Source: an uncultured Gammaproteobacteria bacterium (GTDB taxonomy: Bacteria > Patescibacteriota > Patescibacteriia > UBA11705 > DATKZF01). From it: a stretch of DNA of 64,000 nt. Position numbers and translations under genes: made by a program. Below are positions 7,373 through 62,626 of the stretch, piece by piece. Under the pieces are notes generated by a model. It had not been told where the DNA came from. It worked only from the letters and a program-made list of their open reading frames with translations, and did not search any database. The stretch spans positions 5,547 through 69,546 of the forward strand of contig CAYPKD010000005.1 in assembly GCA_964411255.1 (NCBI GenBank), given 5' to 3'. The stretch's first letter is position 1. Every line of letters begins with the position of its first letter.

Positions 7373-7373
7373 C

Positions 7374-7417
7374 GTCAAAAGGTAAAAACGAATTCGAATT
7401 CGTTTTTACCTTTTGAC
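7374..7417. repeat. perfect 22-bp-arm palindrome (gtcaaaaggtaaaaacgaattc|gaattcgtttttaccttttgac)
   Basis: Read directly from the sequence. It overlaps the last codons and the stop (7406-7408) of the minus-strand methyltransferase gene. Confidence 0.6.
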
Positions 7418-8554
7418 GGCTATTTTCCAAATTGTAATTCTTCGAACCAAATGTTGTCCTGGCCTTGAATAATCAAATTCATTGAGTAAATTATAGCCAA
7501 GCTGTTTTATATTTTCATCAATTGACGTATCGATTATTTGTTTTTTAGATTTTAATTTTGGAAAGATAAATACCACTATATGTTTAGATCCAAGCAATTT
7601 ACTAAATTTTTCAAAGGATTTTAAATATAAAAGCTGAAGTTCTTTTTTTATTTTATTTAAGTCTGCCTGATTTTCTTTACCAGTTAAGGGTTTGCCTAAA
7701 TATGGTTCAGTGACAATTGCTTGAGGTAAAAATTTTAAATCTTTTGCAGTTGCTTTGGTTATGTCTAGCGTTTTCATTTCAATATTTACAGTTAAATTAA
7801 AATTTTCAAGCAGCCAATCAATATTTTTTTGAGCTTTTAGAATAGTTGAAGCATTTATATCACTACCAAAGATGTTTTCATATCCTAATATTGCTGCTTG
7901 CTGCAAAATAGTGCCAAAACCGCAAAATGGATCCCAAATAGTTTTTGTTTTTTGTGGAATTAGATTAATCATCATTTGCGCCACTTTAGGCGGCAGCATA
8001 CCTATCTTGGGATCAAATTCTGGACGGCCATAGTCAAGCTTGTTCCAGAGCTCAAAGTCCTGAACGGCTAAGGTTTTACCAATTAAAAAAATTCCGCGTT
8101 GTTCAAAAATACAAAGCTCAATTCCCTGATCAATCAGCTTATTTTTTTTAACAACGACTGCGGTTAGGTTTTGCGTTTTCGGACTCACAAATCTACATGG
8201 CCGGCTTTGTTTAATAATTTTTTTTATTTCAATGCCCAGTTTGTTTATTTTAAGTTTTTGATTTGTATAGTCGCTTATTCCAAACTGGATCTTGTTTGTT
8301 TGTTTTAAATCAATCGTTTTGATGAGCTCGTTGGCATTGAGTCTCTGAATTTGGCCGATGATTTCACCGAATTTTATTTGACCGCCGAGTCTGTAAAAGA
8401 TTTTGTTATCTATTTTTTCTTTCGATTCAATAATAAAAAGCTCGTTTTGCTGCAAAATTTGCTTAAATTCAATTTTTGTTAAAAACAAAACGTTTTTTAT
8501 CTCAGCTAAAGATAATTGGGGTGTTTTTCCAAAAATAAAATAATATTTATGCAT
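7406..8554 (-). CDS. THUMP/Trm11-like RNA (guanine-N2 or adenine-N6) methyltransferase
   Basis: SAM-binding motif I WDPFCGFGTIL and DPPY-like motif TEPYLGKP. The likely start is the ATG at 8552-8554 (MHKYYFIFGK); the ORF-track N-terminal extension to 8704 is rejected. Confidence 0.65.
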   Translation of the reverse strand: MHKYYFIFGKTPQLSLAEIKNVLFLTKIEFKQILQQNELFIIESKEKIDNKIFYRLGGQIKFGEIIGQIQRLNANELIKTIDLKQTNKIQFGISDYTNQKLKINKLGIEIKKIIKQSRPCRFVSPKTQNLTAVVVKKNKLIDQGIELCIFEQRGIFLIGKTLAVQDFELWNKLDYGRPEFDPKIGMLPPKVAQMMINLIPQKTKTIWDPFCGFGTILQQAAILGYENIFGSDINASTILKAQKNIDWLLENFNLTVNIEMKTLDITKATAKDLKFLPQAIVTEPYLGKPLTGKENQADLNKIKKELQLLYLKSFEKFSKLLGSKHIVVFIFPKLKSKKQIIDTSIDENIKQLGYNLLNEFDYSRPGQHLVRRITIWKIAVKR

Positions 8555-8836: not shown

Positions 8837-9022
8837 AAAGCAATCTTTTTATTTAAGAAGGCCTAAGAAGGCACCAGATGGCTTAATAGATAAAGAGGAA
8901 AAGAGGTTGAGAAGGCAAGTATTAAAATTGGAATAGCCTTCTTTTCCCATATGCCTCATTTTCCTATCAATCCCGCTTAAGCCCTATCAAGCCTTCTTTA
9001 ATAATGAAAGGAGAATATTACC

Positions 9023-11005: not shown

Positions 11006-11134
11006 TTAAGGTGGTAGGCCGGTAGGATGGTAGTTTAATTGAAGAAATATAAACTACTTGCTATTCTATTCTAACTTTTTTAATTTTCAATATTTTGATA
11101 TAATAAAATAGTCTCTAATAAATAAAATAAAAAT

Positions 11135-11519: not shown

Positions 11520-12509
11520 ATGACAGATAAAAATACAATTTATGATGTAATAATCATCGGTGCTGGCGCTGCAGGTTTGACAGCAGCCATTTATACTGGC
11601 CGAAGAGAATTGAAAACATTAATTTTGACAAAAGACATTGGCGGCCAGGCTGCGATGACTGATGAAATTGAAAATTGGCCTGGTGAAATTTCTATTTTAG
11701 GACCTGAACTAATGAATAAATTTAAAGCCCAAGCTGAAAAGTGGGGTGCAAAAATTGAATTTGCTGAAATAAAAGAGATTAAAAAAGAAAAAGATTATTT
11801 TGTACTACTTGCAGATGGAAAAGAATATAAAGCATTAACTATAATTTTAGGATTTGGACTTGAGCATAGGAAATTAGGAGTGAGCGGAGAGAAAGAATTT
11901 ACTGGAAAAGGAATATCATATTGCGCCACTTGTGATGGCCCATTATTTCGAGGGAAGACAATTGGTGTGGTTGGCGGAGGTAATTCAGCTTTGGATGCAG
12001 TTGAATATTTAGCAAAGCTGGCGGAAAAGGTTTATATGTTTATTAGAAAAGATACTTTTAGTCCAAATGCAGAGACAGTTCTTGTTGATACAATTCAGAA
12101 TTTGGAAAAACAAGGCAAAGTTGAAGTAATGTGGAACACAGAAGTAAAGGAAATAAAAGGAGAAAAATTAATGAATTCTGTGGAATTTGTTAATAATAAA
12201 ACGAATAAAACACAAGATTTAGAATTAAAGGGTTTATTTATTGAAATTGGCATGGTACCGCAGACAAAAGTGATTGAAGGCCTGGTTGATTTAGATGAAC
12301 GTGGACAAATAGTAATTGATCAGGGATGTAATACCAGCGTGCCTGGCATTTATGCTGCTGGTGATGTAACTATCAGTCCATATAAACAATTGGTCACTTC
12401 TGCTGGGGAAGGTGCAAAAGCAGCTTTATCAGCATATTCTCATATTCAGAAAACTCAGGGTAAAAAAGGCGGAGTTGGGAGTGATTTTACAAAAAAGAAA
12501 ATTATGTAA
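11520..12509 (+). CDS. trxB: thioredoxin-disulfide reductase
   Basis: FAD motif IIGAGAAGLTAAIY and redox-active CATCDG. Confidence 0.92.
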   Translation: MTDKNTIYDVIIIGAGAAGLTAAIYTGRRELKTLILTKDIGGQAAMTDEIENWPGEISILGPELMNKFKAQAEKWGAKIEFAEIKEIKKEKDYFVLLADGKEYKALTIILGFGLEHRKLGVSGEKEFTGKGISYCATCDGPLFRGKTIGVVGGGNSALDAVEYLAKLAEKVYMFIRKDTFSPNAETVLVDTIQNLEKQGKVEVMWNTEVKEIKGEKLMNSVEFVNNKTNKTQDLELKGLFIEIGMVPQTKVIEGLVDLDERGQIVIDQGCNTSVPGIYAAGDVTISPYKQLVTSAGEGAKAALSAYSHIQKTQGKKGGVGSDFTKKKIM

Positions 12510-12620
12510 AAACAGATCAACGGATAGCAACAGATACAACGGAAATCAATTAATATCCGTTTCATCTGTTGTAGATCTGCCAGTCCTGAGCTTGTCGAAG
12601 GGTTGATCCGTTTGAATAAT
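12510..12620 (+). repeat. MITE-like / leader repeat element, copy A
   Basis: About 110 bp with imperfect terminal inverted repeats aaacagatcaac...gttgatccgttt and internal CAAC(A/G)GATA direct repeats. It is homologous to 16540-16630 and 30090-30200 and ends at the gdh ATG. Confidence 0.6.
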
Positions 12621-13844
12621 ATGAATGCATTTGAAAACGCAATGCAGCAACTTGATAATGCTGCGAAAATAATTAATTTAGATGAAAAAGTGCTTCAGTC
12701 ATTAAAAAGGCCTCAAAAGATAATTGAGGTTTCTTTGCCTGTGAAAATGGATGACGGCTCGTTAAAGTTTTTTGAAGGTTATCGCGTTCAATATAATAAT
12801 TGGCGAGGGCCATTCAAAGGCGGCATTCGGTTCTTTCCAGAAGTTGACAAGGACGAAGTAAAAGCTTTATCGTTTTGGATGACCATAAAGTGCGCTGTTT
12901 TAGATTTGCCGCTTGGAGGCGGAAAAGGCGGTGTTACTGTAAACCCGAAAGAACTTTCAGAAAAAGAGTTGGAAAATTTAAGCCGCGTTTATACCCGGGC
13001 TTTATATAATGACATTGGACCAGACAAAGATGTACCAGCGCCAGATGTTTATACCACTCCTCAAATTATGTCCTGGATGGCTGATGAGTATTCAAAAATT
13101 AAGAAAAAAAAGACACCAGGCGTGATTACCGGAAAACCGCTTGAAGCTGGAGGCTCTGAAGGCAGAAGTACAGCTACGGCTCAGGGAGGATTTTATTTGC
13201 TAAAGCACATTATGGAAATTGAGCAGAGAAAGCCTGAAAATCAAACAGTGGCTATTCAGGGATTTGGCAATGCAGGCTCAGTAATGGCGCAGCTTTGTCA
13301 TCAGGATGGATTAAAAGTAGTGGCAGTTTCAGATTCAAAAGGAGGAATTTATAAAAAAGATGGGTTAGACATTAAAAAAGTTATTGAACATAAAAAAGAA
13401 ACTGGATCAGTGCAAAATTTTGAAAATGCAGAAAATATTTCAAATGAAAAATTATTAGAGCTTGATGTGCAGTTTTTAGTGCCTGCAGCTTTAGAAAATC
13501 AAATAACGCGAAATAACGCAAATAAAATTGACGCCAACATTATTATTGAGCTGGCTAATGGACCGATTACGCCTGAAGCAGACATTATTTTATTTGAAAA
13601 AGGAATAAATGTTGTTCCAGATGTGCTGGCAAATGCAGGTGGGGTGACAGTTTCATATTTTGAATGGTATCAGAATGTAAATAATGAAAAATGGACAGAA
13701 AAAAAGGTTTTTGAAAAATTAAAACCCAAAATGATTGAAAATTACGATCAGGTTTTTGAAAAACGAAATGAATTTCAGGTTGATATGAGGCGGGCAGCGT
13801 TTGTGTTGGCCTTGGAAAGACTAAAGCAAACCTTTCCTTTTTGA
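12621..13844 (+). CDS. gdhA: glutamate dehydrogenase (Glu/Leu/Phe/Val dehydrogenase family)
   Basis: KGGIRF and LPLGGGKGG signatures plus a Rossmann GFGNAGS motif. True start taken as ATG 12621; the ORF-track extension through the repeat is rejected. Confidence 0.9.
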   Translation: MNAFENAMQQLDNAAKIINLDEKVLQSLKRPQKIIEVSLPVKMDDGSLKFFEGYRVQYNNWRGPFKGGIRFFPEVDKDEVKALSFWMTIKCAVLDLPLGGGKGGVTVNPKELSEKELENLSRVYTRALYNDIGPDKDVPAPDVYTTPQIMSWMADEYSKIKKKKTPGVITGKPLEAGGSEGRSTATAQGGFYLLKHIMEIEQRKPENQTVAIQGFGNAGSVMAQLCHQDGLKVVAVSDSKGGIYKKDGLDIKKVIEHKKETGSVQNFENAENISNEKLLELDVQFLVPAALENQITRNNANKIDANIIIELANGPITPEADIILFEKGINVVPDVLANAGGVTVSYFEWYQNVNNEKWTEKKVFEKLKPKMIENYDQVFEKRNEFQVDMRRAAFVLALERLKQTFPF

Positions 13845-13871
13845 GTTTGGACACAATAATAACAATAAAAT

Positions 13872-14530
13872 ATGGATAATATAGCTAAAAAGAAAATTGA
13901 TGAGATTTACTCAACAGGTCAAGTTGTCTCAGAATTTGACAAGACCACACACACCATCTTTCCAGTTTCCATAGACCCAGTAGAAGGAAAAAGTTTACAA
14001 GAAGTTGTTAAGCAAGAGAATCCAAAGACAGTGATAGAAATAGGACTTGGTTATGGTTTCGCTGCGTTGAATGTTTTTGCAGGAATAAATATCTCAAAAG
14101 GAAAAGATTTTAGATACATAACCATTGATCCTAATCAAGAGAGTCGTTTTTCAAATATTGGACTTCAACTATTACAAGAAATTGAGGCATCTGATTGCGT
14201 TGAGTTTCATAACTCTCTATCTGAGCTTGTATTACCGCACCTTATTGAAGCAAATGAAAAAGCAGATTTCGCAATAGTGATGGTAATCACAGATTCGAAC
14301 ATGTTTTTGTAGATTTATTTTATCTGGATCGAATCTTAAAACCAGGTAGCATAATTTTTCTTGATGACTTTCAATTACCTGGAATTCAAAAAGTTGTTTC
14401 ATTTTTTGTAAATAATATTGAATGGAAAATTGAAGCAGAAGGAAGTATTTCAAAGGATCATCATTGGGTAACGTTACGAACTCGATCTGAAGTCTTGGAG
14501 CGAGATTATGATGCTTTTACTGATTTCTAA
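13872..14530 (+). pseudogene. class I SAM-dependent O-methyltransferase, frameshifted
   Basis: N-terminal part VIEIGLGYGFAALN...ADFAIV continues in another frame as DGNHRFEHVFVDLFYLDRILKPGSIIFLDDF. An apparent 1-nt deletion near 14279 separates the two frames. Confidence 0.55.
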
Positions 14531-14541
14531 AACGAATAAAT

Positions 14542-15081
14542 ATGCTTGGATTGAATCGTAAAAATGTGAAATTATCAAAATATCATCCGGGCTGGAAAAA
14601 GGCTTTTGAGGATGAAAAGACAGCTATCCAAAAGAAATTAGGAGAATCCGTATTAGATATTGAACATATCGGCTCAACATCAATTCCAGGAATGAGTGCA
14701 AAGCCTGTTCTTGATTTTATGATTGCAGTAAAATCAGTTGATGACTATGAAAAATTTGTTGAGCCTCTAAAAAAACTTGGATACAAATTTCGAAGAGACA
14801 ACAGAGAAATTCAGGAACACATTTTATTTGTAAAAGGTCCTGAGGATTTAAGAACCCACTATCTCAAACTAACTGAAAAAGACTCTGAATTCTGGAAAGA
14901 ACATATTTTGTTCCGTGATTATTTAAGAAATCATCCTAAAACGGCTAGGGAATATCAAGAACTAAAAGAAAACCTGCAGGAATCTCTTGGGTCAAGCAGG
15001 GCTACTTACACTGAAGCTAAAGCAGAATTTATCCAAAAGATACTTAGACTGGTAAAAGCTGAGGAAAAGGCTAAACAGTAA
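14542..15081 (+). CDS. GrpB family (UPF0157) protein
   Basis: HIGSTSIPGMSAKPVLD and the conserved C-terminal block typical of GrpB. Confidence 0.65.
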   Translation: MLGLNRKNVKLSKYHPGWKKAFEDEKTAIQKKLGESVLDIEHIGSTSIPGMSAKPVLDFMIAVKSVDDYEKFVEPLKKLGYKFRRDNREIQEHILFVKGPEDLRTHYLKLTEKDSEFWKEHILFRDYLRNHPKTAREYQELKENLQESLGSSRATYTEAKAEFIQKILRLVKAEEKAKQ

Positions 15082-15118
15082 CCGCAAACGGCATTTGCTG
15101 AAATTTCCTATATTAATT

Positions 15119-15736
15119 ATGCACTACGAAAGAAAATTATTTAAAGAAGGATTTAATTATATCGCCGGCATAGATGAAGCCGGCCGCGGGGCCTGGGCAG
15201 GGCCTTTATTTGTTGGTGCTGTTATTTTACCAATAAAGAACTTATCTGAATTTGGTAATATAAAAGATTCAAAAAAACTAACAGCAAAAACAAGGGAAAT
15301 ACTCGAGGATAATATAAAGCAAAATTGTGTGAGCTGGGCAGTGGGAAAAGCTGAGAGTTATGAAATTGACGAGCTGGGATTACAAAATGCGCATTTGCTT
15401 GCGGTCGAGCGTGCATTTTTAACATTAAAGCAATATCCGGATTATGTATTGGTCGATCGAATTGCCAAAGTTAAATTCCCAATACCTTTTGAAAATATTA
15501 TTAAAGCTGATGATAAGTTTTTATGCGTAGGGGCAGCATCAATTATTGCTAAAGTTGGCAGAGATAGAGAAATGATTCGATTGGCTAAAGAGTTCCCTGA
15601 ATTTAAATTTGAAGATCATAAGGGTTATGGCACAAAGCTGCATCAGGATTTAATTGATCAATATGGATTATGCAAAATTCACCGTAGATTATTTTCACCA
15701 ATCCGGCAGCTTGACAAGGATTTACATTTGTTATAA
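15119..15736 (+). CDS. rnhB: ribonuclease HII
   Basis: GIDEAGRGAWAGPLFVGAVIL signature; start taken at ATG 15119. Confidence 0.85.
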   Translation: MHYERKLFKEGFNYIAGIDEAGRGAWAGPLFVGAVILPIKNLSEFGNIKDSKKLTAKTREILEDNIKQNCVSWAVGKAESYEIDELGLQNAHLLAVERAFLTLKQYPDYVLVDRIAKVKFPIPFENIIKADDKFLCVGAASIIAKVGRDREMIRLAKEFPEFKFEDHKGYGTKLHQDLIDQYGLCKIHRRLFSPIRQLDKDLHLL

Positions 15737-15772
15737 TATTTTTTATTCATAATCAAAAAAGAGGGGGAGATC

Positions 15773-15892
15773 ATGGATTCACCATTTTGGCATCAAGTAA
15801 TTTGGATATTTGGTATTGTTGGAACATTATGTGTAGGTGCATTAATTTATTATTTAATTCGATGGTTAAAAGGGAAAAAAGAGATAAACTAA
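15773..15892 (+). CDS. small hydrophobic membrane peptide (39 aa)
   Basis: Strong RBS AGAGGGGGAG 7 nt upstream of the ATG, a single TM helix, and a terminator immediately downstream. Not in the ORF track (under 60 aa). Confidence 0.45.
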   Translation: MDSPFWHQVIWIFGIVGTLCVGALIYYLIRWLKGKKEIN

Positions 15893-15902
15893 TATGAATA
15901 GT

Positions 15903-15931
15903 GACAGAACTTCATAGAGTTCTGTTTTTTT
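15903..15931 (+). terminator. rho-independent terminator
   Basis: Hairpin acagaact-tcatag-agttctgt followed by ttttttt. Confidence 0.7.
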
Positions 15932-16059
15932 ATTATGAGATTACCACGATGTGGTCACTTCGTGACAAGATCCATAATACGAGATAATACAGATTACAGA
16001 TAGTACAAGATTAGCGGATTCCAAATAGTAATAAGCAATCAGCAATTAACAATCATTCC

Positions 16060-16088
16060 TTGACATAATTTTAAATAAATGATAACAT
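16060..16088 (+). promoter_or_regulatory. candidate promoter TTGACA-17-TAACAT
   Basis: Consensus -35 with a 17-nt spacer, about 45 nt upstream of ORF 16134. Confidence 0.4.
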
Positions 16089-16133
16089 TGATAAATGTTG
16101 GGTGAGGTCAGACATCTAAAAAAGGAGGGGTAG

Positions 16134-16454
16134 ATGTCGAGAAGAAAAGACAGAGAAGAATCCAAACCAGGCGGTACGTATGATATTCCACTTGAAAAAG
16201 TGGTTGTCACAGCTCCTGGGCAAAAACCAGATGAAGTTGCTGCAAAAAAGCAGATTGCTCAAAAGGTTTTGAGTAGCCTGCCGCCTGCAGTGGACCGGGG
16301 TTTGCGAGTGGCGTTTGGTATTCCAGTGCCATCGAGTATGCCACTTTCTCAAAAAGAGGGCGCCAGCCCAGAAACAAAAGTTGAAATTGCAAAAATTGAA
16401 CGCAGGGCCTTGGAGCGGCTTCAAACGCAACAAGCAGTTGATTCATTAAAATAA
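16134..16454 (+). CDS. hypothetical small protein, compositionally GC-rich
   Basis: RBS AAGGAGGGG, own promoter and terminator. GC content is visibly higher than the flanks, and both strands are open in this stretch. Confidence 0.5.
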   Translation: MSRRKDREESKPGGTYDIPLEKVVVTAPGQKPDEVAAKKQIAQKVLSSLPPAVDRGLRVAFGIPVPSSMPLSQKEGASPETKVEIAKIERRALERLQTQQAVDSLK

Positions 16455-16469
16455 ATTCATTAATTTATT

Positions 16470-16495
16470 AAGGACTCTTTTGGGTCCTTTTTTAC
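16470..16495 (+). terminator. rho-independent terminator
   Basis: Hairpin aaggactc-tttt-gggtcctt followed by tttttt. Confidence 0.7.
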
Positions 16496-16524
16496 TTGAT
16501 TTTTTGTAAAAATTCAGATAGAAT
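16496..16524 (+). promoter_or_regulatory. candidate promoter TTGATT-17-TAGAAT for leuS
   Basis: Direct motif match; places repeat copy B in the leuS 5' leader. Confidence 0.4.
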
Positions 16525-16539
16525 AGTAATAGTTTTTAG

Positions 16540-16630
16540 AAAAACAGATCAACAGATCAGCAACGGATACAACGGAAATCATTTGACATCTGTTTCATCT
16601 GTTGAATATCCGTTGATCCGTTTGAACAAT
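16540..16630 (+). repeat. MITE-like / leader repeat element, copy B
   Basis: Aligns with copy A over its full length except for a roughly 30-nt internal indel. Termini aaacagatcaac...gttgatccgttt; ends at the leuS ATG. Confidence 0.6.
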
Positions 16631-19036
16631 ATGAAGAAATATAATCACCAAAAATTAGAAAAAAAGTGGCAAGAGTATTGGGAAGAAAAAGAAATATACA
16701 AAGCTTTGGATTTTGATCAAACAGATAAGCCTAAATATTACAGTTTAATAGAATTCCCTTATCCATCTGGGGAAGGTCTTCATGTTGGCCATCCGCGAAG
16801 CTACACCGCCTTAGATGTTATTGCCAGAAAGAAAAGGATGCAAGGGTATAATGTTTTATTCCCAATTGGCTGGGATGCTTTTGGTTTACCCACGGAAAAT
16901 TATGCAATAAAAACCGGTATTCATCCAAAATTAGCTACTGCTCAAAATGTTAAAAGATTTACAAAGCAATTAAAGAGCCTGGGATTGAGTTTTGACTGGT
17001 CAAGGGAAATAAATACTACTGATCCTGAATATTATAAATGGACGCAATGGATATTTTTAAAATTGTATGAAAATGGTTTAGCATATAAAAAGAAAATGCC
17101 AATTAATTGGTGTCCTTCATGCAAAATTGGTTTAGCCAATGAAGAAGTGGTCAGTGGAGTTTGTGAGCGCTGCGGTCATGACGCAGAAAAAAGAGATATG
17201 AAACAATGGCTTTTAAAGATAACTGCATATGCAGATCGTTTGATTGAGGATTTGGAAACCGTTGATTATTCTGAGAATATTAAAACAGCGCAAATAAATT
17301 GGATTGGCCGGAGCGAAGGAGCTGATGTTGATTTTGAAATAAAAGGAACAGATAAAAAACTTAGTGTTTTTACCACCAGACCTGATACTTTATTTGGCGC
17401 AACGTACATGGCAATTGCTCCTGAACATGAATGGGTTGAAGAAATCACCACAAAAGACAATAAAGAAGCTGTTTTTAATTATCAAAAGCAGGCCAGGCAA
17501 AAATCAGATTTAGAAAGAACTGATTTGGCAAAAGAAAAGACCGGAGTGTTTACTGGCGCGTATGCAATTAATCCGGTCAATGGCCAGGAAATTCCAATTT
17601 GGGTTGCTGATTATGTTTTGTCAACTTATGGCAGTGGAGCAATTATGGCGGTACCAGCGCATGATGAGCGTGATTATGAATTTGCCAAAAAATATGATTT
17701 GCCAATTATTGAAGTTATTAAAGGCGGAGACATCGCAAAAGAAGCTTACACCGAAGATGGTGAGTTAATAAATTCAGAAATGCTTAATGGTTTAAATGTT
17801 AGTGATGCCATAAGTAAAATAAATAAATGGCTGGAGGAAAAAGAATTTGGTAAAGCAACTATTAATTATAAGCTTCGCGACTGGATTTTTTCCCGGCAAC
17901 ATTATTGGGGTGAGCCAATACCAATTGTTTTTTGTAAAAAATGCGGTACAGTACCTGTCCCATATGAAGAATTGCCACTGGAGTTGCCAAAAGTTGAAAA
18001 TTATAAGCCAACTGAAACGGGTGAATCACCTTTAGCAAATATTAAAAAGTGGGTTAATACAAAATGTCCAAAATGTAAGGGATCTGCAAAGAGAGAAACA
18101 GACACAATGCCAAACTGGGCTGGCAGTTCATGGTATTTCTTGCGATATTGCGATCCAAAGAACAGTGAAGAATTTGCAAATTCTGAGAAACTAAAATATT
18201 GGTTTCCAATAGATTTATACAATGGCGGAATGGAACACACAACATTGCATTTATTGTATTCCAGATTTTGGCATAAATTTTTATTTGATATAGATTTAGT
18301 GCCAACTTCAGAGCCTTACATGCAGCGGAGATCTCATGGCTTGATTATCGGAGAGGATGGACAGAAAATGTCAAAGTCTAGAGGTAATGTTATTAATCCG
18401 GACGATATTGTTAAGGAGCACGGAGCAGATGTTTTGAGAACATATGAGATGTTTATCGGTCCATATGATCAGTCTATCGCATGGTCAACAAACGGTATAA
18501 ATGGAATTCGGAGGTTTATTGATAGGATTTATAATTTTAAGGGTTTTAAAAATAATGGAACTAAGGATTCTGAGGAAGTTGAGATATTATTGCAAAAGAC
18601 AATAAAAAAAGTAACAGATGATATAGATAAAATGCATTTTAATACAGCTATTAGCGCTTTAATGATTTTATTGAACAAATTTGAAGAAGAAAAGATTATT
18701 TCAAAAGATACTTGGAAAATATTTTTAATAATGTTTTCTGTGTTCGCGCCACATATAACGGAAGAGCTTTGGCAGGCTCTGGGTGAAAAGACCAGCATAT
18801 GCCTAAAACCATGGCCCAAGTATGATGAGGGTAAAATTAAAGAAGAAAAAATTAAATTAGTAGTACAGGTTGATGGTAAGGTACGGGCAAATATCGAGGT
18901 AGAAAGCGGAATAATTGAAGACGAAGCAAAACAAATAGCATTGAAAGATGAAAAATTAAAAAAATCTATTGGGGATAAGGAAATTAAAAAAATTGTGTTT
19001 GTGAAGGATAAGCTGATTAATTTTGTGATAAAGTAA
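16631..19036 (+). CDS. leuS: leucyl-tRNA synthetase
   Basis: HIGH (HVGHPRSY) and KMSKS motifs and the editing domain. Start taken as ATG 16631 (MKKYNHQKLEKKWQEYW). Confidence 0.95.
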   Translation: MKKYNHQKLEKKWQEYWEEKEIYKALDFDQTDKPKYYSLIEFPYPSGEGLHVGHPRSYTALDVIARKKRMQGYNVLFPIGWDAFGLPTENYAIKTGIHPKLATAQNVKRFTKQLKSLGLSFDWSREINTTDPEYYKWTQWIFLKLYENGLAYKKKMPINWCPSCKIGLANEEVVSGVCERCGHDAEKRDMKQWLLKITAYADRLIEDLETVDYSENIKTAQINWIGRSEGADVDFEIKGTDKKLSVFTTRPDTLFGATYMAIAPEHEWVEEITTKDNKEAVFNYQKQARQKSDLERTDLAKEKTGVFTGAYAINPVNGQEIPIWVADYVLSTYGSGAIMAVPAHDERDYEFAKKYDLPIIEVIKGGDIAKEAYTEDGELINSEMLNGLNVSDAISKINKWLEEKEFGKATINYKLRDWIFSRQHYWGEPIPIVFCKKCGTVPVPYEELPLELPKVENYKPTETGESPLANIKKWVNTKCPKCKGSAKRETDTMPNWAGSSWYFLRYCDPKNSEEFANSEKLKYWFPIDLYNGGMEHTTLHLLYSRFWHKFLFDIDLVPTSEPYMQRRSHGLIIGEDGQKMSKSRGNVINPDDIVKEHGADVLRTYEMFIGPYDQSIAWSTNGINGIRRFIDRIYNFKGFKNNGTKDSEEVEILLQKTIKKVTDDIDKMHFNTAISALMILLNKFEEEKIISKDTWKIFLIMFSVFAPHITEELWQALGEKTSICLKPWPKYDEGKIKEEKIKLVVQVDGKVRANIEVESGIIEDEAKQIALKDEKLKKSIGDKEIKKIVFVKDKLINFVIK

Positions 19037-19037
19037 A

Positions 19038-19166
19038 ACCAGCATTTCTGCTGTACGCCTGCCAGTTTCGTGGTCAGCGGCAGAGATGCCGCTTGATTCA
19101 GTGCAGGCGCTTACAAGCACCATTTCTGGTGCTACCCAAAATGACAGCAGAAATGCTGGTTTTTTG
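19038..19166 (+). terminator. complex terminator-like structured element after leuS
   Basis: Perfect 17-bp outer stem accagcatttctgctgt / acagcagaaatgctggt followed by a T-run. It encloses about 86 nt of GC-rich sequence with at least two inner hairpins. Confidence 0.55.
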
Positions 19167-20774: not shown

Positions 20775-21138
20775 AAACCGGACATGAAGATGCCCGGGTA
20801 ACCCTGCTAGTGGAAGTTTTTTAATCACAACCAATATTAGCGCGCAGAAGAGTATGTATTCATCCTGGCTGAGTCCGTTTCCTCCAGCTTTAAGCACAGT
20901 ACATCTGTACAGAGCCAATAGAAGCAGAATCTGCGTTTGGTAAATTATCTCTCTGCACACAGCTGGCTTTGACCGATTACTGCTCAGAAGGGAAATAACT
21001 TGCACAATACACTCTCCTTATGCTATTTTGTTCGCTTTGAAGTTTTACCCTCAAAGGTACTATCAAATAGATCATAAAGAAAAGCATACGCAGGGTAATA
21101 CTATTATATATCAAAGAAATAAAAATGGAAATAGGTTA

Positions 21139-21167
21139 TTGACAAAACGGTAAAAATGTGATAGTAT
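21139..21167 (+). promoter_or_regulatory. candidate promoter TTGACA-17-TAGTAT (extended TG)
   Basis: Direct motif match upstream of ORF 21204. Confidence 0.4.
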
Positions 21168-21203
21168 TAAATATAATATATTATTTTATAAGGAGGTGCT
21201 ATT

Positions 21204-21398
21204 ATGGCCAGAAAAAAGACAAAGATTACCATTAAAATGAAGGAAACTGAGCAAGAGAAAGCTAAAAGGCGGCGTCGATCTGCCAGACGGGCAGGAGAGA
21301 CAGTTCATAAGCCTACCAGAGCTCATGAACCAAAAACCCGCTATAAGCGATCTCGAGCCAAACAGCAGCTTCGCAATCGACTGCAAAAGGAGGGCTAA
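21204..21398 (+). CDS. small highly basic protein (64 aa)
   Basis: Strong RBS TAAGGAGGTG, Lys/Arg-rich sequence, GC-richer than flanks. Function unknown; possibly a nucleic-acid-binding or ribosomal-like protein. Confidence 0.45.
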   Translation: MARKKTKITIKMKETEQEKAKRRRRSARRAGETVHKPTRAHEPKTRYKRSRAKQQLRNRLQKEG

Positions 21399-21420
21399 GC
21401 ATGGCTTGCCAAACTAAAAA

Positions 21421-21455
21421 AACCCTGATTCAATTTCAGGGTCTTTCTTTTTTAA
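21421..21455. terminator. bidirectional terminator
   Basis: Hairpin aaccctgattcaatttcagggt flanked by an A-run and a T-run, between convergent genes. Confidence 0.7.
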
Positions 21456-21464
21456 AATATTAAT

Positions 21465-30089: not shown

Positions 30090-30200
30090 AAACAGATATT
30101 AATTTGTTTCCGTTTTATATCTGTTGCTATCCGCTTGCCCCGAGCGACCTGTCCTGAGCGAAGTCGAAGGAAGTTGAGGCGTTGATCCGTTTCTATTAAA
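30090..30200 (+). repeat. MITE-like repeat element, degenerate copy C
   Basis: Shares gaaaacagat..., cctgtcctgagcgaagtcgaagg and gttgatccgttt blocks with copy A. The 5' half is degenerate. Confidence 0.5.
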
Positions 30201-31943: not shown

Positions 31944-32191
31944 TAGCTTCTCCTTATGGCAGGTTTGTTATTAAGCAAGCGTCCTTGCAAAGCAGGGCTG
32001 TCCAGCAGAGATGACTGGATAGCAAAATACAGGTCCCAAAAGGGAAAATTGTAAATGTGCAGGCCTTCTTGACGTCTCAAGAAAAGGCAAAAATAAATGA
32101 AAAATCACTTGCTTTTGCCTTTTCTTGTTTGAGTAAAGTTAACATTTAATATTGCTAGTGTCAAGCATGTATATAAATAAAATAGCCTTTT

Positions 32192-32385
32192 AAAAAACAG
32201 GCCCGTTAGGCCTGATTTAATCTTTTTCAATTTCGGCTTGTGCCGACCTACTTTTTGCTGCCAAAAAGTAGGCAAAAAGCACTGGGGGGCTTCAAATGCG
32301 AAGCAACGATTAAGTTTGAGGATCGCCCCAAGGGCAATCAGCCCCCCAGACCCCCGATTCTATTGACGAATTATTTTTTACAAAA
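32192..32385. ncRNA. candidate structured small RNA (unclassified)
   Basis: GC-rich segment with four or more hairpins, including a 10-bp stem ctggggggct/agccccccag. It is bracketed by terminator-like hairpins at both ends (32198-32222 and 32386-32410); orientation unresolved. Confidence 0.25.
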
Positions 32386-32408
32386 GACCACCAGTTTCCT
32401 GGTGGCTT

Positions 32409-33111: not shown

Positions 33112-33353
33112 ACGATATTAGTATAACATATTACATTTTACAAACAAAAAACAGCCTGCCAAAGAGACTGTTTTTTGATATTATCATTGGGATTACTGAT
33201 TTGATATTACTCTAACATCACACTGTTGCCAAGAAAAGATAGTTGGAGAGAGGTTTAAAGAACATCTATCTCTTTTGGCAAGCAGTGTGATGCCAAAGTT
33301 TGTTTACAAACTCCAGAGGAATTAGGAGCAGATGAGTGCTCCTAAAGGAAAGA

Positions 33354-34635: not shown

Positions 34636-35126
34636 TGAAAGCTCCTTTTTAAAAAAATTTGAAAAAAAACACTCGAATCTAACAAGAGATCCAAGCATTT
34701 TTTCGTACGAAAGTCCGCTTAAGACTCTCTTTCAAAATTTCCAAATAAGTTTTAGAAACTTTGAGAGATCGGAGAGTGCAGTGCTCACTCTCCGATGTCC
34801 GTTGCTTTAACCCGTAGGAGGCAGCTTTAGGTGCCTATGCGTTTTAAGGATGCAAGCGTTAAAGATCTCGGCTTGTTCATCCTGTTACCCATCCCCACTA
34901 GAGGATGTATTGGGTGGTTAGCAGAATTTTATACAGGCGCCTCTGCCAGGGCGCAGATGTAAACACATTGATGACAGATTATTATCTCTTGCCACCAAAT
35001 TAATGTTGTGAAGAGCCTTGTTGCTCTTCTCTGAATTCTGAAAATAAATTTCAGAACTCGGAGAAGCTGAGGATGGTTTGACGCATCCTCAGATATTTCC
35101 TTTCTTAAAATTTGGAGGTGAATAAC

Positions 35127-35567: not shown

Positions 35568-36110
35568 GTGGGCCTCCCTATATAAAAAGATTAATAGACA
35601 TTTTTGTCAAAATTGCTGAAAGGACGATGTAGGTGAGATGCCAAAGAGATTTGAAGGGACTTAAATAGATTTATTTCCCTTATCTCAATATGGGCAAAAT
35701 ATGCTCAGCCAATCTAATCGCAAGCGAATAGATCAGCATGAACTTCTCTCTCCTCTACATCGTTCTGTTCAGAAATTAGACATATAAAAACAGACTGAGA
35801 GAACCATGTCTGTTTAAAATACAGCTTTATAATCTAGCTGACTCTCTCTCCATGAAATTTGTTAGATTTCAATTTTCGATTTTGATTTAGTATTATAGCA
35901 TATTTTTTTAAAAAAGTCAAGACGAGAGCATAATTTAAGTCGTTTTTTGTCTAAATTTACGGAAATTACAAATTTGCTAAACTGGTAAATTAATTAAAAT
36001 TTTAGTAAAAATATTACGAATAATTACGAATTAGCAAGGCTGTTATTGAAAAGCATATATTTAATTGGTAATATGATAGAGCCTGTTTTCATGCGGAAAA
36101 GGAGAAAACC

Positions 36111-36595: not shown

Positions 36596-38023
36596 TTAAA
36601 TAGCATTTTTACCTTTAATCACTGCCCATGGAGTTTTTAATAATATCCAAAAATCAAGTTTTAGCGACCAGTTTTCAATATAGAAAATATCCATTTTTGC
36701 TTCTTCATCAAATGGCAAATCGCTTCGACCACTGATTTGAGCAATACCAGTTATTCCAGGTTTTATATCTAAGGTTCGTAATTGCTCTGGCGTATATCTT
36801 TCAACTTCTCTTGGCTGGTGAGGCCGAGGGCCAACTATGCTCATATTTCCGATAAAGACATTGAAAAATTGAGGCAGCTCATCAATGCTGATTTTTCGGA
36901 TAAATCTGCCAACAGCAGTTACGCGGGGATCTTTTTTTATTTTATATAAAGCACCTCTGGACGCCCCTTGTTCTTTTATTAATTTTTTTTCAAGTTCCAA
37001 TGCTTGTTTACTTGATGGTGCATCTGGCCCTGTACTCATATCCCAATACATTGATCTGAATTTGTATACATTGAATTTTTTTCCATTTTGGCCAACTCTT
37101 TCATTCTTATATATAATTGGCCCTTTTGAATTAATTTTTATGGCAATAGCTGTAAATAGCATTATTGGTGAAGATAAGATTATAAAAATAATTGAACTAA
37201 ATAAATCAGAAAATCTTTTAATAATTTTTTTCCAGCCGTCCAGTGGTGTCTTTTTTATTTCAATTACTGGCAGACCAGCAATCATGTGCGTTTCAATGTT
37301 GGTAGCCCTGGCTTCAAAAGGACCGGCAACATATTTAAAAATAATATGATTATATTTGGCAAAATTGATCAATGAAATTGTATCTTTTCTTGAGATATTT
37401 GGATCAGTTTGAATGATTTCATCAATAAATGTTTTTTTATGAAGAGCTTGAATTTTCATTAATGTGTCTTGATTAAACTGTTCAAAATGTTTGAGAATTT
37501 TTAATCCTAATGAAGGTTGTTTTAAGATTGCATTTTTTACAGCATTAGTATTTGAATTTTTTCCAATAATTATAATTTTATGAGTTCCCCAGCCAGTTTT
37601 ATATAAACTATTTTGAACGATTCTAATTATCATTCTGCCAACAATTATGAAAAGGATGCTGAAAAGCCAGGCAAACAAAATAATAAATCTTGATTCAAAA
37701 AGTTCTCTGACAAAGAACATATATAGAATAATTGCAGTCATGCCAGTAGAGCAGGCTAATATAATCCTGGCCATTTCATCAGTGACTTTTGTTTTTTTAA
37801 ATTTATAAAGAGATGACCAAAAAAAGAAAATCAGCCATATTGCAGCCATTACAATTAGTACACCTAAATATTTATTAAATTCCAGATCAAATACAACCGG
37901 CCTTATTTCAGTAACTGATTCAATAAAACGCAGAGAATAAGCGGTAATACCAGCCAATATTAAAAGAAAGTAGTCAGTGACCAGTTTTATAAGTACAAAT
38001 ATTAATTCTGATTTTTTTATCAT
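36596..38023 (-). CDS. polyprenyl-phosphate sugar phosphotransferase (WbaP/bacterial sugar transferase family)
   Basis: N-terminal TM helices; C-terminal sugar-transferase block IVGPRPHQPREVERYTPEQLRTLDIKPGITG. Confidence 0.85.
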   Translation of the reverse strand: MIKKSELIFVLIKLVTDYFLLILAGITAYSLRFIESVTEIRPVVFDLEFNKYLGVLIVMAAIWLIFFFWSSLYKFKKTKVTDEMARIILACSTGMTAIILYMFFVRELFESRFIILFAWLFSILFIIVGRMIIRIVQNSLYKTGWGTHKIIIIGKNSNTNAVKNAILKQPSLGLKILKHFEQFNQDTLMKIQALHKKTFIDEIIQTDPNISRKDTISLINFAKYNHIIFKYVAGPFEARATNIETHMIAGLPVIEIKKTPLDGWKKIIKRFSDLFSSIIFIILSSPIMLFTAIAIKINSKGPIIYKNERVGQNGKKFNVYKFRSMYWDMSTGPDAPSSKQALELEKKLIKEQGASRGALYKIKKDPRVTAVGRFIRKISIDELPQFFNVFIGNMSIVGPRPHQPREVERYTPEQLRTLDIKPGITGIAQISGRSDLPFDEEAKMDIFYIENWSLKLDFWILLKTPWAVIKGKNAI

Positions 38024-38150
38024 AAATTTGTTAGGCTGGTAGATCGGTAGGTTAGTAGGTTGGTAGATTTAAAAAAAATTGGAAGAAGGACGCTACTAAT
38101 ATTATTGCAATTTTTTGTAAAAATTTCAATAATAACATCCACCTTCCAAT

Positions 38151-38760
38151 TGATCCAAACAGGTCTATAAGCCGAATTCTGTCCCACCAGAGGCGGGGAT
38201 GATCATCTATCTAGTCCCGAGATTACTCTCGGGATCAAGCGAGCTACCAAACTTGCTCTTGCACCAGATAAGGTTTACCACCACCTAATGTTACCATTAG
38301 GCAAGAGAAGTATAAATTAAATAGTCACGTGAACCATTTAACTTTTTTCCTTCTCACTTTTCACCTTTCACCACTGCTACGCAGTGGAATTTCTAAATCC
38401 TAATTTTTTAAACTCTGAACAATTTTCAAATTTTCGAAAGGTTTTAAACATTAGAACATTTGAATTTCGAATTTGTTTAGAATTTCGTATTTCGAATTTA
38501 GCGCTTCCATTGCGCAACAATGGCTAGTATAGTCTCTGTGGCACTGGCTGTCGTCTAGGTTTATTAATTATCCTAGAATCGCCTGGGAGTTACCCAGTAT
38601 CATACCGCAGATTACGCTGATTAGCCGATTACGCAGATTGCAGGACTTTTTTTTATCAGCGTAATCAGCGTAATCTACGGTCAGGTGTTCGGACTTTCCT
38701 CCGGCCTACGCTTTTCACTTTGTTCAAAGCTTCGGCTGGCGATCATCCAACCTATTTGGA
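38151..38760 (-). ncRNA. rnpB: RNase P RNA (bacterial type A-like) with large insertions
   Basis: On the minus strand: GGAGGAAAGUCCGAACACC (P4 5' strand), CUGGGUAACUCCCAGG (P8-like), CCAGUGCCACAGAGAC, GGUGAAAGGUGAAAAGUGAGAAGG (P13/14-like), CUAGAUAGAUGAUCAUCC...GACAGAAUUCGGCUUAUAGACC (P4 3' strand, P2). The 5' and 3' ends pair as P1. Confidence 0.8.
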
Positions 38761-41220: not shown

Positions 41221-42198
41221 TTATTTTACTAATCCGATTTGTTCTTTTACCCGTTCCAATGTTTGTGAAGCAACTTTTTGTGCGTTTTCTGCTCCTTTTT
41301 CTAAAATTTTTAAAACCTTTTTATCATCAAGTTCATTTATTTTATCTTGAATAGGATTTAGAAATTCAATAATTTTTTCAGCTAAGTCTTTTTTAAAATT
41401 ACCATAACCTTTGCCTGCATATTTTTTTTCAATTGATTTGATTTCTTCGCCAGTTACTAAGTGGTAAATGGTTAACAGATTGGAAACCGCAGGTTTATCA
41501 TCAGCATATTTTATTTCAGATCCAGAATCAGTGACTGCTTTCATTATTTTTTTGCGAATTAAATCTGGCTGATCTGTTATTGCAATATAATTATATTCTG
41601 AAGCGGCAGATTTGCTCATCTTTTGTGTTGGGTCATCGAGCCCCATCAAGCGGGCACCATGTTCTGGCACAAAAGTTTTCGGTACTTTTAGAGCATCCCC
41701 ATACAAATTATTAAACTTCTTGGCAACTGTTCTGGTTAATTCAACATGCTGCATCTGATCTTCACCTACTGGGACAACATCAGTGTCATAAAGCAAAATA
41801 TCTGCAGCCATTAGTACTGGATAGGTGAAAAGACCGGCATTGATATTTTCCTTATGTTTTTGTGCCTTGTCTTTAAATTGAGTCATCCGCTCTAATTCAG
41901 CAATCGGAGTAATAGTGCTTAGGATCCAGGACAGCTCAGTATGTTCAGATAAATGTGATTGAATAAATAACGTGCATTTTTTTGGATCAAGTCCAGCAGC
42001 AATAAATATTTTTGCCAGATTCAAAGTATTTTGTCTTAATATTTCAGGTTGCTGATAAACTGTTAAGGCATGGAGATCAACTATACAAAAATAAGAATCA
42101 TATTCATTTATGAAGTTAAGCCAGTTTTTTATTGCGCCAAAGTAATTTCCGAGATGAATTATACCGCTTGGCTGGATTCCACTTAAAATTCTTTTCAT
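41221..42198 (-). CDS. trpS: tryptophanyl-tRNA synthetase
   Basis: HIGH-type motif PSGIIHLGNY and KMSKS. Confidence 0.9.
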   Translation of the reverse strand: MKRILSGIQPSGIIHLGNYFGAIKNWLNFINEYDSYFCIVDLHALTVYQQPEILRQNTLNLAKIFIAAGLDPKKCTLFIQSHLSEHTELSWILSTITPIAELERMTQFKDKAQKHKENINAGLFTYPVLMAADILLYDTDVVPVGEDQMQHVELTRTVAKKFNNLYGDALKVPKTFVPEHGARLMGLDDPTQKMSKSAASEYNYIAITDQPDLIRKKIMKAVTDSGSEIKYADDKPAVSNLLTIYHLVTGEEIKSIEKKYAGKGYGNFKKDLAEKIIEFLNPIQDKINELDDKKVLKILEKGAENAQKVASQTLERVKEQIGLVK

Positions 42199-42207
42199 AT
42201 ATTTTTA

Positions 42208-42244
42208 GATTGGTAGATCGGTAGATTTGTAGATTGGTAGTTAG
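42208..42244. repeat. GGTAGAT-unit repeat block (left inverted repeat of 4HB cassette)
   Basis: gattggtagatcggtagatttgtagattggtagttag; its reverse complement recurs at 42674-42710. Confidence 0.55.
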
Positions 42245-42246
42245 AA

Positions 42247-42647
42247 TTATTTATTATTTAATTCTTTAGTTTTTGAATTTGTCATTTTATTCAACATTCG
42301 CATGACTTCATTTAATAAATTATCAACTTTTAAAAAATTTAATTTTTTTCCAAATGGTAGACGATTGGCAATTTCTATTTGAGTTTCTAATTCTGCCCCG
42401 GAAGCATATGCTACTATTAAAAAGTGACGATATTCTTTTATTGTTAGTCGTTTTTTTCCTTCAGCGATATTCGAGGGGATAGATATAGCTGTTTTTCGTG
42501 TATGTTGAATTAATCCAAATGATTCAATTTTCGGATATTATTCTGTTAATTCATAGACCGCGACAACTAAATCCATTGCTTTTTGCCAAACAATTAATTT
42601 CCGGTAATCCCCAGGTTGATTAATTTCATTTTAAAATAATTTCCCAT
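42247..42647 (-). pseudogene. four-helix-bundle protein (Avd / 23S rRNA IVS protein, TIGR02436-like), disrupted
   Basis: The minus strand encodes MGNYFKMKLI..VWQKAMDLVVAVYELTE*YPKIESFGLIQHTRKTAISIPSNIAEGKKRLTIKEYRHFLIVAYASGAELETQIEIANRL.... A 26-nt duplication-type insertion (direct repeat attaatttc at 42594/42620) shifts the frame. There is an in-frame TAA at 42538-42540. Not in the ORF track. Confidence 0.6.
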
Positions 42648-42673
42648 GTACTTTTATCCTATCATTTAAATCT

Positions 42674-42710
42674 CTACTGATCTACCAATCTACCGCCCTA
42701 CCGAACTAAC
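42674..42710. repeat. inverted copy of GGTAGAT-unit repeat block (right IR)
   Basis: ctactgatctaccaatctaccgccctaccgaactaac is the reverse complement of the block at 42208-42244. Confidence 0.55.
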
Positions 42711-42713
42711 TTA

Positions 42714-48313: not shown

Positions 48314-48436
48314 TTTAAATTTGAGAATAGTTATTTAGAAATCAGTATTAGAAATAAGATAATAAAAATAGTTTTTAAATACTAATTTCAAATTTCCATT
48401 TTCCATTACCAATTTTGATTTTCTATAAACTAATTT

Positions 48437-49539: not shown

Positions 49540-49552
49540 TAATTTTGAGAAT

Positions 49553-49631
49553 TGGAGGTTACGGAATTACGGAAGGTTACTGATATTACGGATATCCGTA
49601 GTATCCGTAATAATCAGTAAATCCGTAATCC
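49553..49631. promoter_or_regulatory. palindromic array of TTACGGA / TCCGTAA repeats (operator-like)
   Basis: ggttacggaattacggaaggttactgatattacggatatccgtagtatccgtaataatcagtaaatccgtaatcc: three direct TTACGGA on the left and three TCCGTAA on the right, around a perfect 14-bp palindrome tacggatatccgta. Confidence 0.55.
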
Positions 49632-49640
49632 CTAATAAAT

Positions 49641-62578: not shown

Positions 62579-62626
62579 GAATTACCGTGTTCTTTGAATA
62601 AAACCTCTTTGGGAAAGGGAAAAATC

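Follow-up and report, generated by a model that had tools for sequence, protein, structure and literature searches.

Why should the genes for an amino-acid dehydrogenase (gdh; product a Glu/Leu/Phe/Val dehydrogenase) and for leucyl-tRNA synthetase (leuS; product LeuRS) be preceded by one and the same palindromic repeat? The question is raised by a 64,000-nucleotide stretch of DNA (the window; 34.8% G+C), encoding proteins with close homologues among those named as Patescibacteria metagenome-assembled genome (MAG) proteins. An initial annotation had described a family of two copies and had offered two explanations, a miniature mobile element landing repeatedly at start codons or a dedicated cis-regulatory RNA leader common to both genes. 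We conclude that the two copies, A and B, probably belong to a dispersed, near-perfectly palindromic repeat of about 81 nt in Patescibacteria, selfish or neutral and similar in kind to miniature inverted-repeat transposable elements (MITEs), repetitive extragenic palindromes (REPs) and ERIC elements, and that they are not a gene-specific regulator.

Both elements are present where they had been placed originally. Copy A (12510-12613, plus strand) fills the intercistronic gap between trxB and gdh, and copy B (16542-16623, plus strand) lies in the 5' leader of leuS. Copy A has the termini AAACAGATCAAC and GTTGATCCGTTT, which copy B shares, and each arm of the two copies consists of four AAC(A/G)GAT-type units with a spacing of 8-10 nt. 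Tandem Repeats Finder agrees with the internal tandem units reported before (period 10, 3.3 copies in A; period 8, 2.1 copies in B). The inner 52 nt of A and B are 87% identical, and the copies can be aligned end to end once a 22-nt nested insert in the 3' arm of A (CCAGTCCTGAGCTTGTCGAAGG, 12580-12601, plus strand) is taken out; this insert is lacking in copy B and in a near-identical metagenome copy (L009). The terminal 11-mer AACAGATCAAC, with at most one mismatch, has 11 occurrences where 1.4 are expected. As had been anticipated, both copies are predicted to fold into long hairpins with stems of about 30 bp (A: -33.5 kcal/mol, z -3.7; B: -30.5 kcal/mol, z -4.6), and in neither case did any shuffled sequence fold as well.

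The family is larger than the two copies first described. A third, degenerate copy, C (approximately 30092-30192, plus strand; 15 bits, E about 1), is located between two minus-strand genes. It retains the loop-proximal part and the terminus GTTGATCCGTTT (30181-30192), has lost most of its 5' arm, and carries a nested insert of 46 nt (around 30135-30180) with the core TCCTGAGCGAAGTCGAAGG. The nested-insert core, CCTGAGC-NNN-GTCGAAGG, was found in three instances, in the arms of A and C and at the tip of a hairpin at L028:12963-12980; the two matches in the window compare with none expected.

Metagenome contigs were scanned with a strict pattern requiring both termini separated by 52-82 nt (241 million records). 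The scan returned 13 loci, 11 of which are full homologues of 81-83 nt; the other two, which are GC-rich, have the termini alone in common with the element. Aligned in a common orientation, A, B and the 11 metagenome copies have a mean column identity of 88%, and an asymmetric internal loop (AC/TC) close to the tip is conserved. The copies score 85-105 bits against a covariance model of the family, except for A (55-57 bits, insert included) and L013 (49 bits), both of which carry nested inserts, in L013 a mini-hairpin of its own. Within the window the model detects A, B (93 bits) and, marginally, C, and nothing else. The neighbours of the copies include lysS, the rpsG-fusA, mraZ-rsmH and rpsM-rpsK gene pairs, dcd, proS, mnmA, pheS, alaS and a glycosyltransferase gene. 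Every copy nearly fills its intergenic gap, with the upstream stop codon 0-4 nt and the downstream ATG 2-16 nt away; relative to transcription, some copies point one way and some the other. The family is spread over unrelated junctions and over several metagenomes. In a presence/absence check in the reverse direction, no orthologue of any gene beside a metagenome copy was present in the window. Viral contigs gave no matches to the element, and a phage origin was not considered further for that reason. The copy almost identical to A (L009:111-192) is on a 3-kb contig of 51% G+C beside a gene for a huge Cys/Asp-rich repeat protein; this contig represents either another host or a chimera.

The outer flanks of the family follow the asymmetric consensus TAA-element-GA(A/T)C. 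Relative to these flanks the core lies one way round in eight copies and the other way round in five, and nearly every element has AAACGGATCAAC at one end and AAACAGATCAAC at the other. Core, termini and flanks are therefore arranged as a flip/flop-like mosaic, a pattern that might arise through a fold-back or hairpin DNA intermediate, or through recombination between the arms.

Comparison with relatives shows sites that are filled, empty or occupied by something else. Four relatives reached via Gdh homologues share the syntenic order infB-trx-trxB-gdh-rnhB-...-leuS, with Gdh identities of 91, 88, 81 and 78%. At the trxB-gdh junction of the 91% relative (L025) the element is absent and the genes overlap as ATGA, the 88% relative has a GxxExxY/PDDEXK_3 gene between periodic inverted arms, and the 78% relative has two small open reading frames (ORFs). 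In the leuS leader, the terminator, the -10 hexamer TAGAAT, the atagttttt that follows it and the first codons are conserved across the genomes compared, the flanks of the window and L025 being nearly identical, and between these conserved flanks each genome has a different hairpin. It is built of AACRGAT units in the window, of TTACAGAA/TTACGGAA units in L025 and of CTACGAAT units in L027; in L028 it is short, with CCCTGAGCGCAGTCGAAGGG nested at the tip, and in L030 TTACAAAT arms surround a GxxExxY gene. The junction preceding proS is occupied by the element in L010 and by a one-armed 8-nt array in an 82% relative, whereas relatives at 77% and 76% show nothing but a plain short spacer there. 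The nuclease-family GxxExxY (TIGR04256 / PF13366) genes in periodic-arm hairpins, L027:9571-9975 and L030:12693-13088, occupy exactly the trxB-gdh and leuS-leader sites where the window has A and B. Within the few nucleotides that separate a stop from the next start, or a promoter from a start codon, the element has been gained, lost and replaced.

Both window copies precede amino-acid-related genes, and other copies flank the aminoacyl-tRNA synthetase genes proS, alaS, pheS and lysS, as might be expected of a leader dedicated to responding to amino acids or tRNA (an attenuator or a T-box-like device) and common to the dehydrogenase and the synthetase. We regard such a leader as extremely improbable, and largely refuted already. 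Copies are also located before rsmH, rpsK, fusA, dcd and a glycosyltransferase gene, in both orientations, and the element is missing from orthologous gdh and leuS genes. Rfam contains no match to the element, either in the whole window (gathering threshold; E<=0.05) or in 12400-16700 (E<=5), which upholds the previous statement that no T-box is present; the scans yielded RNase P RNA and chance-level matches elsewhere, nothing more, and no tRNAs were found. The stems of A and B are not followed by a U-tract, and they offer no terminator/antiterminator alternative.

The alignment of the family leads to the same result. Although 93% of its cells pair, as expected of a palindrome, the covariation among copies that had been suggested as a check scored below all 500 shuffles. 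Four variable A/G-C/T column pairs are uncompensated (columns 5/79, for instance, combine G.T eight times, A.C four times and G-C once), and the sense strand has no excess of G-U pairs over A-C mismatches. The similarity between copies therefore reflects copying and not selection on pairing. A T-box or riboswitch leader, having no Rfam match, covariation or U-tract, was rejected, and the proposal of a leader dedicated to gdh and leuS finds no support. Together with the dispersal of the element and its empty and swapped sites, these findings argue for a mobile or hypervariable palindromic element and not for a shared riboregulator.

A less specific function at the RNA level has to be weighed as well. 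The hairpin could be selected as a generic cis-acting stem for mRNA stability, RNase III/J processing or translational coupling, its sequence being free to drift or to be swapped. This would account for the presence of a hairpin, of differing sequence, between promoter and leuS ATG in every genome compared, and it fits with elements that always end 2-16 nt before an ATG, with predicted stems that are long and stable, and with an RNase J encoded in the window. We consider it unlikely, since the trxB-gdh and proS junctions have no hairpin at all in close relatives, and since the one-armed arrays that occupy this position have no structure at all. Compensatory changes are lacking, sense-strand A-C mismatches being as frequent as G-U pairs, and an identity of 88% between copies next to unrelated genes points to copying and away from convergent selection of stems.

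As a dispersed, selfish or neutral palindrome, the element would at most provide a generic intercistronic or leader stem, either stabilising the mRNA or serving as a processing site of the RNase III type, in the manner of rRNA intervening sequences. Copy A would be co-transcribed within the trxB-gdh unit and copy B from the conserved promoter, and the transcript would fold back into a stem of about 30 bp that rejoins the upstream stop and the downstream start. A stem of this length is long enough for RNase III. The element is probably tolerated at very tight or coupled junctions because fold-back reunites stop and start.

The copies keep their sequence and not their pairing, in that the unit cores are invariant and the paired A/G and C/T positions uncompensated. 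This behaviour raises the alternative that the element acts as double-stranded DNA or as a cruciform, in which AAC(A/G)GAT/GATC sites are presented about once per helical turn to a sequence-specific protein such as a nucleoid, methylation-linked or nuclease factor, possibly a four-helix-bundle or GxxExxY protein. The unit spacing of 8-10 nt is in line with such a role. So is the enrichment of ACRGAT (4.6-fold) and AACGGA (11-fold) in intergenic over coding DNA. Hairpins made of 9-nt AACGGAT units were also detected by a scan of genomes with the inner-arm pattern, namely in Calothrix PCC 7103, in several Chloroflexota MAGs and, among Bacteroidota, in a Saprospiraceae MAG and Larkinella, at 39-61% G+C. 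We nevertheless find this explanation doubtful, because the unit sequences are wholly different at orthologous sites, which a single sequence-specific factor does not explain, and because strict placement in transcribed stop-start gaps is not predicted by it.

The proposal of a miniature mobile element fares better. It is broadly supported by dispersal and polymorphism; what a formal MITE would need besides, a consistent target-site duplication and a partner transposase, did not turn up in the flanks and in the window, respectively. Like a MITE, the element is short (81-104 nt), palindromic throughout and without an ORF, has inverted termini (AAACRGATCAAC/GTTGATCYGTTT), and shows multiple dispersed copies and insertion polymorphism. 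Several observations weigh against a mobile and neutral nature. A comparison of the flanks of all copies and one clean empty site revealed no consistent target-site duplication. Against the empty site of L025, GAAAATATGAA seems duplicated around copy A; this apparent duplication overlaps ends also seen in other copies, and ends borne by the element (TAA-...-GAAYAAT) explain it at least in part. No transposase or REP-associated tyrosine transposase (RAYT) is encoded among the ORFs of the 64-kb window, nor does their annotation reveal any mobilising enzyme, and no ORF-loaded version with AACRGAT arms was seen. Copy number is modest, with two to three copies in 64 kb and 11 in the metagenome records under the strict pattern, and many hairpins of the wider class described below look site-unique, which fits local generation better than transposition. 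The occurrence of some hairpin in every leuS leader compared could mean that a stem is selected, instead of neutrality. Transcription, RNA folding and RNase III processing are, moreover, inferred.

Some specific mobile systems were considered and discarded. IS608-like targeting of TTAC was dropped, as TTAC is on the wrong side of the element, and assignment to REP/REPIN elements, 20-40-nt palindromes that bear a GTAG or CGTC tag and are moved by a RAYT, was rejected for an element of 81 nt with AAAC/GTTT ends in a window without a RAYT. GTAG-containing units are present in the arms of four-helix-bundle cassettes (see below) and not in A or B. An integron attC site was ruled out because the terminal GTTGATC misfits GTTRRRY, the flanks are housekeeping operons, and the window has no integrase.

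The junctions of A and B refine the description of where the element ends. Contrary to the earlier statement, the palindromes do not reach the ATG itself and stop 7 nt short of it. Copy A is followed by the spacer GAATAAT and the gdh ATG at 12621-12623 (together 12614-12623, plus strand), and copy B by GAACAAT and the leuS ATG at 16631-16633 (16624-16633, plus strand). At the empty site of L025, the orthologue of the gdh ATG is the one overlapping the trxB stop. Four copies have a GAAYAAT spacer in front of the ATG (exact in A, B and L014, extended in L007), and it is missing at the empty site, so that the 7-nt spacer appears to move along with the element. Both copies had been assigned to 5' untranslated regions. 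This fits B, which lies behind the promoter-like sequence TTGATT-17-TAGAAT, found as reported at 16496-16524 (plus strand) and preceded by a terminator-like hairpin of the gene upstream (16470-16489); relatives have preserved the -10 hexamer and the atagttttt behind it. Copy A is instead an intercistronic spacer, directly abutted by the trxB stop TAA (12507-12509) and without a promoter of its own.

The elements also affect the calling of start codons. Mechanically defined ORFs pass through both elements from TTG starts at 12603 and 16496, which explains the shared LIRLNNM peptide and agrees with the artificial extension already pointed out. The public gdh call (400 aa) starts at the second ATG (12642). 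In relatives the orthologous start lies seven codons earlier, at the first ATG (12621 in the window; 407 aa), which here follows the element at a distance of 7 nt. The missing Shine-Dalgarno sequence behind the element was dropped as a special feature and is uninformative, because only about 13 of the 50 window ORFs have one.

The AACRGAT element is one family in a genome-wide class of periodic-unit hairpins. A hairpin of another family, with TTACGGA units (49551-49636, plus strand; -39.2 kcal/mol, z -6.6; 42 bits), ends 4 nt before the ATG at 49641 of a pilin-domain gene. Further intergenic hairpins that fold well include those at 33209-33299 (z -7.5), 8865-8998 and 48317-48395, among others. 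A weak hairpin or array of GGTAGG units is located just past the infB stop (11006-11080, plus strand), and a one-armed CTACC/GGTAG array (38024-38075, minus strand) lies directly upstream of the ATG of the gene at 36596-38023 and resembles a four-helix-bundle cassette's downstream arm. Hexamers with a 3.6- to 11-fold excess in intergenic over coding DNA include AACGGA, AATTCG, ATTACG and ACAGAT. A CRGAT core common to all hairpin types was considered and rejected, as CRGAT itself, unlike the clearly enriched ACRGAT and AACGGA, shows only a weak excess in intergenic DNA (5.7 versus 4.2 per kb) and the resemblance is loose.

Members of this class have also entered a structural RNA gene. The RNase P RNA gene (38152-38758, minus strand; Rfam 139.6 bits) measures 607 nt instead of about 370 nt, owing to two periodic-unit inserts. 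One is in helix P12 (around 38379-38504, minus strand) and consists of ATTTCGA units. The other, of about 118 nt, stands in place of model positions 75-89; within it is a hairpin of CGCAGATTA units (38604-38681, minus strand; z -9.8 for 38595-38690). A smaller insert is present in P3. Helix P12 is also where Vioque, in 1997, reportedly placed the tandemly repeated short repetitive sequences (STRRs) of cyanobacteria.

Some periodic-unit hairpins carry a gene in the loop, encoding either a four-helix-bundle (PF05635) or a GxxExxY (PF13366) protein. In the window, a cassette with inverted arms of GGTAGAT units (42199-42713, minus strand; arms 42199-42248 and 42664-42713) contains a PF05635/TIGR02436 four-helix-bundle pseudogene (around 42247-42630, minus strand) with an in-frame TAA at 42538-42540. 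The cassette is directly upstream of a class I W/Y-type aminoacyl-tRNA synthetase gene (41221-42198; Pfam tRNA-synt_1b), and an intact orthologue of it was found in L032. Of four further four-helix-bundle genes from Patescibacteria that were examined, one is the intact orthologue of the window pseudogene; of the other three, the first precedes a tRNA-synt_1c (Glu/Gln-type) synthetase gene, the second separates pheS from pheT, and the third is part of a pilin operon. Among the genes examined, all five of the four-helix-bundle type and both of the GxxExxY type have periodic inverted arms on either side, and the order in the four-helix-bundle cassettes is always 5'-GTAG-type units, ORF, CTAC-type units-3'. 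An incomplete literature search found no link of PF05635 or GxxExxY genes to periodic arms, which is weak evidence that the association is new.

How does the element compare with known systems? Like ERIC/IRU, Correia/NEMIS, RUP/BOX and REP/BIME/REPIN elements, it is short, non-coding, near-palindromic, intergenic and dispersed at unrelated genes. It is likewise polymorphic in presence or absence between relatives, and it has a predicted RNA hairpin; the RNA hairpins of ERIC and Correia elements affect mRNA processing. In contrast to those elements, its arms are made of 8-10-nt periodic units, a TA or other clear target duplication is lacking, and no RAYT or insertion sequence partner for it was seen in the 64-kb window. 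It is also placed with near-nucleotide precision between stop and start, whole hairpins are exchanged for unrelated ones, and the host belongs to the Patescibacteria. REPs, furthermore, are palindromes of 20-40 bp (PMC3733652). No description of MITE- or REP-type elements of this sort in Patescibacteria (the candidate phyla radiation, CPR) was found in the same kind of incomplete search, again weak evidence of novelty.

Cyanobacterial STRRs offer a second parallel. These short tandem units, too, are intergenic and also occur inside RNase P RNA (here in P12 and at a second site), and the Calothrix genome itself has an AACGGAT-unit hairpin. For STRRs in the RNase P RNA gene, PMC2858038 cites Vioque (1997). 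In Nostoc, intergenic repeats are located between the starts of transcription and translation; whether they act in translation or are relics of transposition is a matter of debate (PMC2408588). Whereas STRRs have 7-nt units and belong to heterocystous cyanobacteria, the units here are 8-10 nt long (7 nt in one P12 array), an array is combined with an inverted array, and the host is patescibacterial. The AACRGAT element is, moreover, a discrete 81-nt family and not an open-ended array. We therefore do not assign it to the STRRs proper, the definition of which is not matched by its period, hairpin arrangement and host.

The intervening sequences (IVSs) of 23S rRNA resemble the class in another respect, as inverted-repeat stems surround a PF05635 ORF in the window cassette at 42199-42713 and in L032-L035, and as insertion into a structural RNA gene is tolerated (RNase P RNA). 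The stem of an IVS, which takes the place of an rRNA helix tip, juxtaposes the ends of the insertion in the RNA, where RNase III can remove the insert. In contrast, A and B have no ORF, are located in mRNA spacers and not in rRNA, and have periodic arms; as the cassette at 42199-42713 lies in an mRNA leader, an assignment to 23S rRNA IVSs proper was rejected.

The nested inserts of A and C (22-46 nt), together with the small hairpin in L013, resemble tiny mobile repeats that insert into repeats. Small dispersed repeats nested in other repeats are said, by the title of a 2008 study from Elhai and colleagues, to occur in cyanobacteria. The sequence of the inserts found here differs from those, and three instances of their core are at hand.

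We tentatively raise the possibility that periodic-arm hairpins represent one unrecognised kind of mobile cassette, either empty or loaded with a PF05635 or a GxxExxY PD-(D/E)XK gene. Such cassettes would reside in gene junctions, leaders and peripheral RNA helices, would be neutralised by RNA fold-back, and might be exchanged through hairpin DNA, an exchange that would account for the flip/flop mosaics. If true, this would unite STRRs, 23S rRNA IVSs and the four-helix-bundle and GxxExxY families across Patescibacteria, Cyanobacteria, Chloroflexota and Bacteroidota. The combination of periodic arms with two abundant orphan gene families and the parallel in RNase P RNA bears on the nature of STRRs and on the role of IVS-type proteins. 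In the compact genomes of Patescibacteria, hypervariable DNA is confined to precise stop-to-start gaps and leaders, with whole hairpins exchanged between relatives whose Gdh proteins are 78-91% identical. On the practical side, the elements artificially lengthen ORFs and shift start-codon calls, as for gdh, and they probably break metagenome assemblies, many four-helix-bundle matches being situated on contigs of less than 2 kb.

Other features of the window were noted in passing. Between gdh and rnhB, the stretch 13872-15081 comprises an O-methyltransferase-like gene, a GrpB gene and a 229-nt gap; L025 is without this stretch and has rnhB directly after gdh. Directly past the leuS stop (19035-19163), two GC-rich hairpins lie between the halves of a perfect 20-bp inverted repeat, with a U-run behind. 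With a minimum free energy of -69 kcal/mol (z -8.8) this structure is far stronger than an ordinary terminator, and it has no Rfam match. At the window end, which truncates it, a gene at 62594-64000 (plus strand) encodes a retron-type reverse transcriptase fused to a C-terminal RNase H (aa ~390-466; PADLOC RT_XIII, 9e-39; NCBIfam retron St85 family, 4e-41, below the cut-off). This gene has no evident link to the AACRGAT element, and the 102-nt gap upstream of it could hold its ncRNA. Four long, relatively GC-rich and ORF-poor intergenic stretches with local hairpins (20775-21464, 31944-32408, 34699-35111 and 35586-36110), without an Rfam match at E<=0.05, may hold unannotated RNAs. Finally, a perfect 46-nt palindrome centred on GAATTC (7373-7418) lies between convergent genes.

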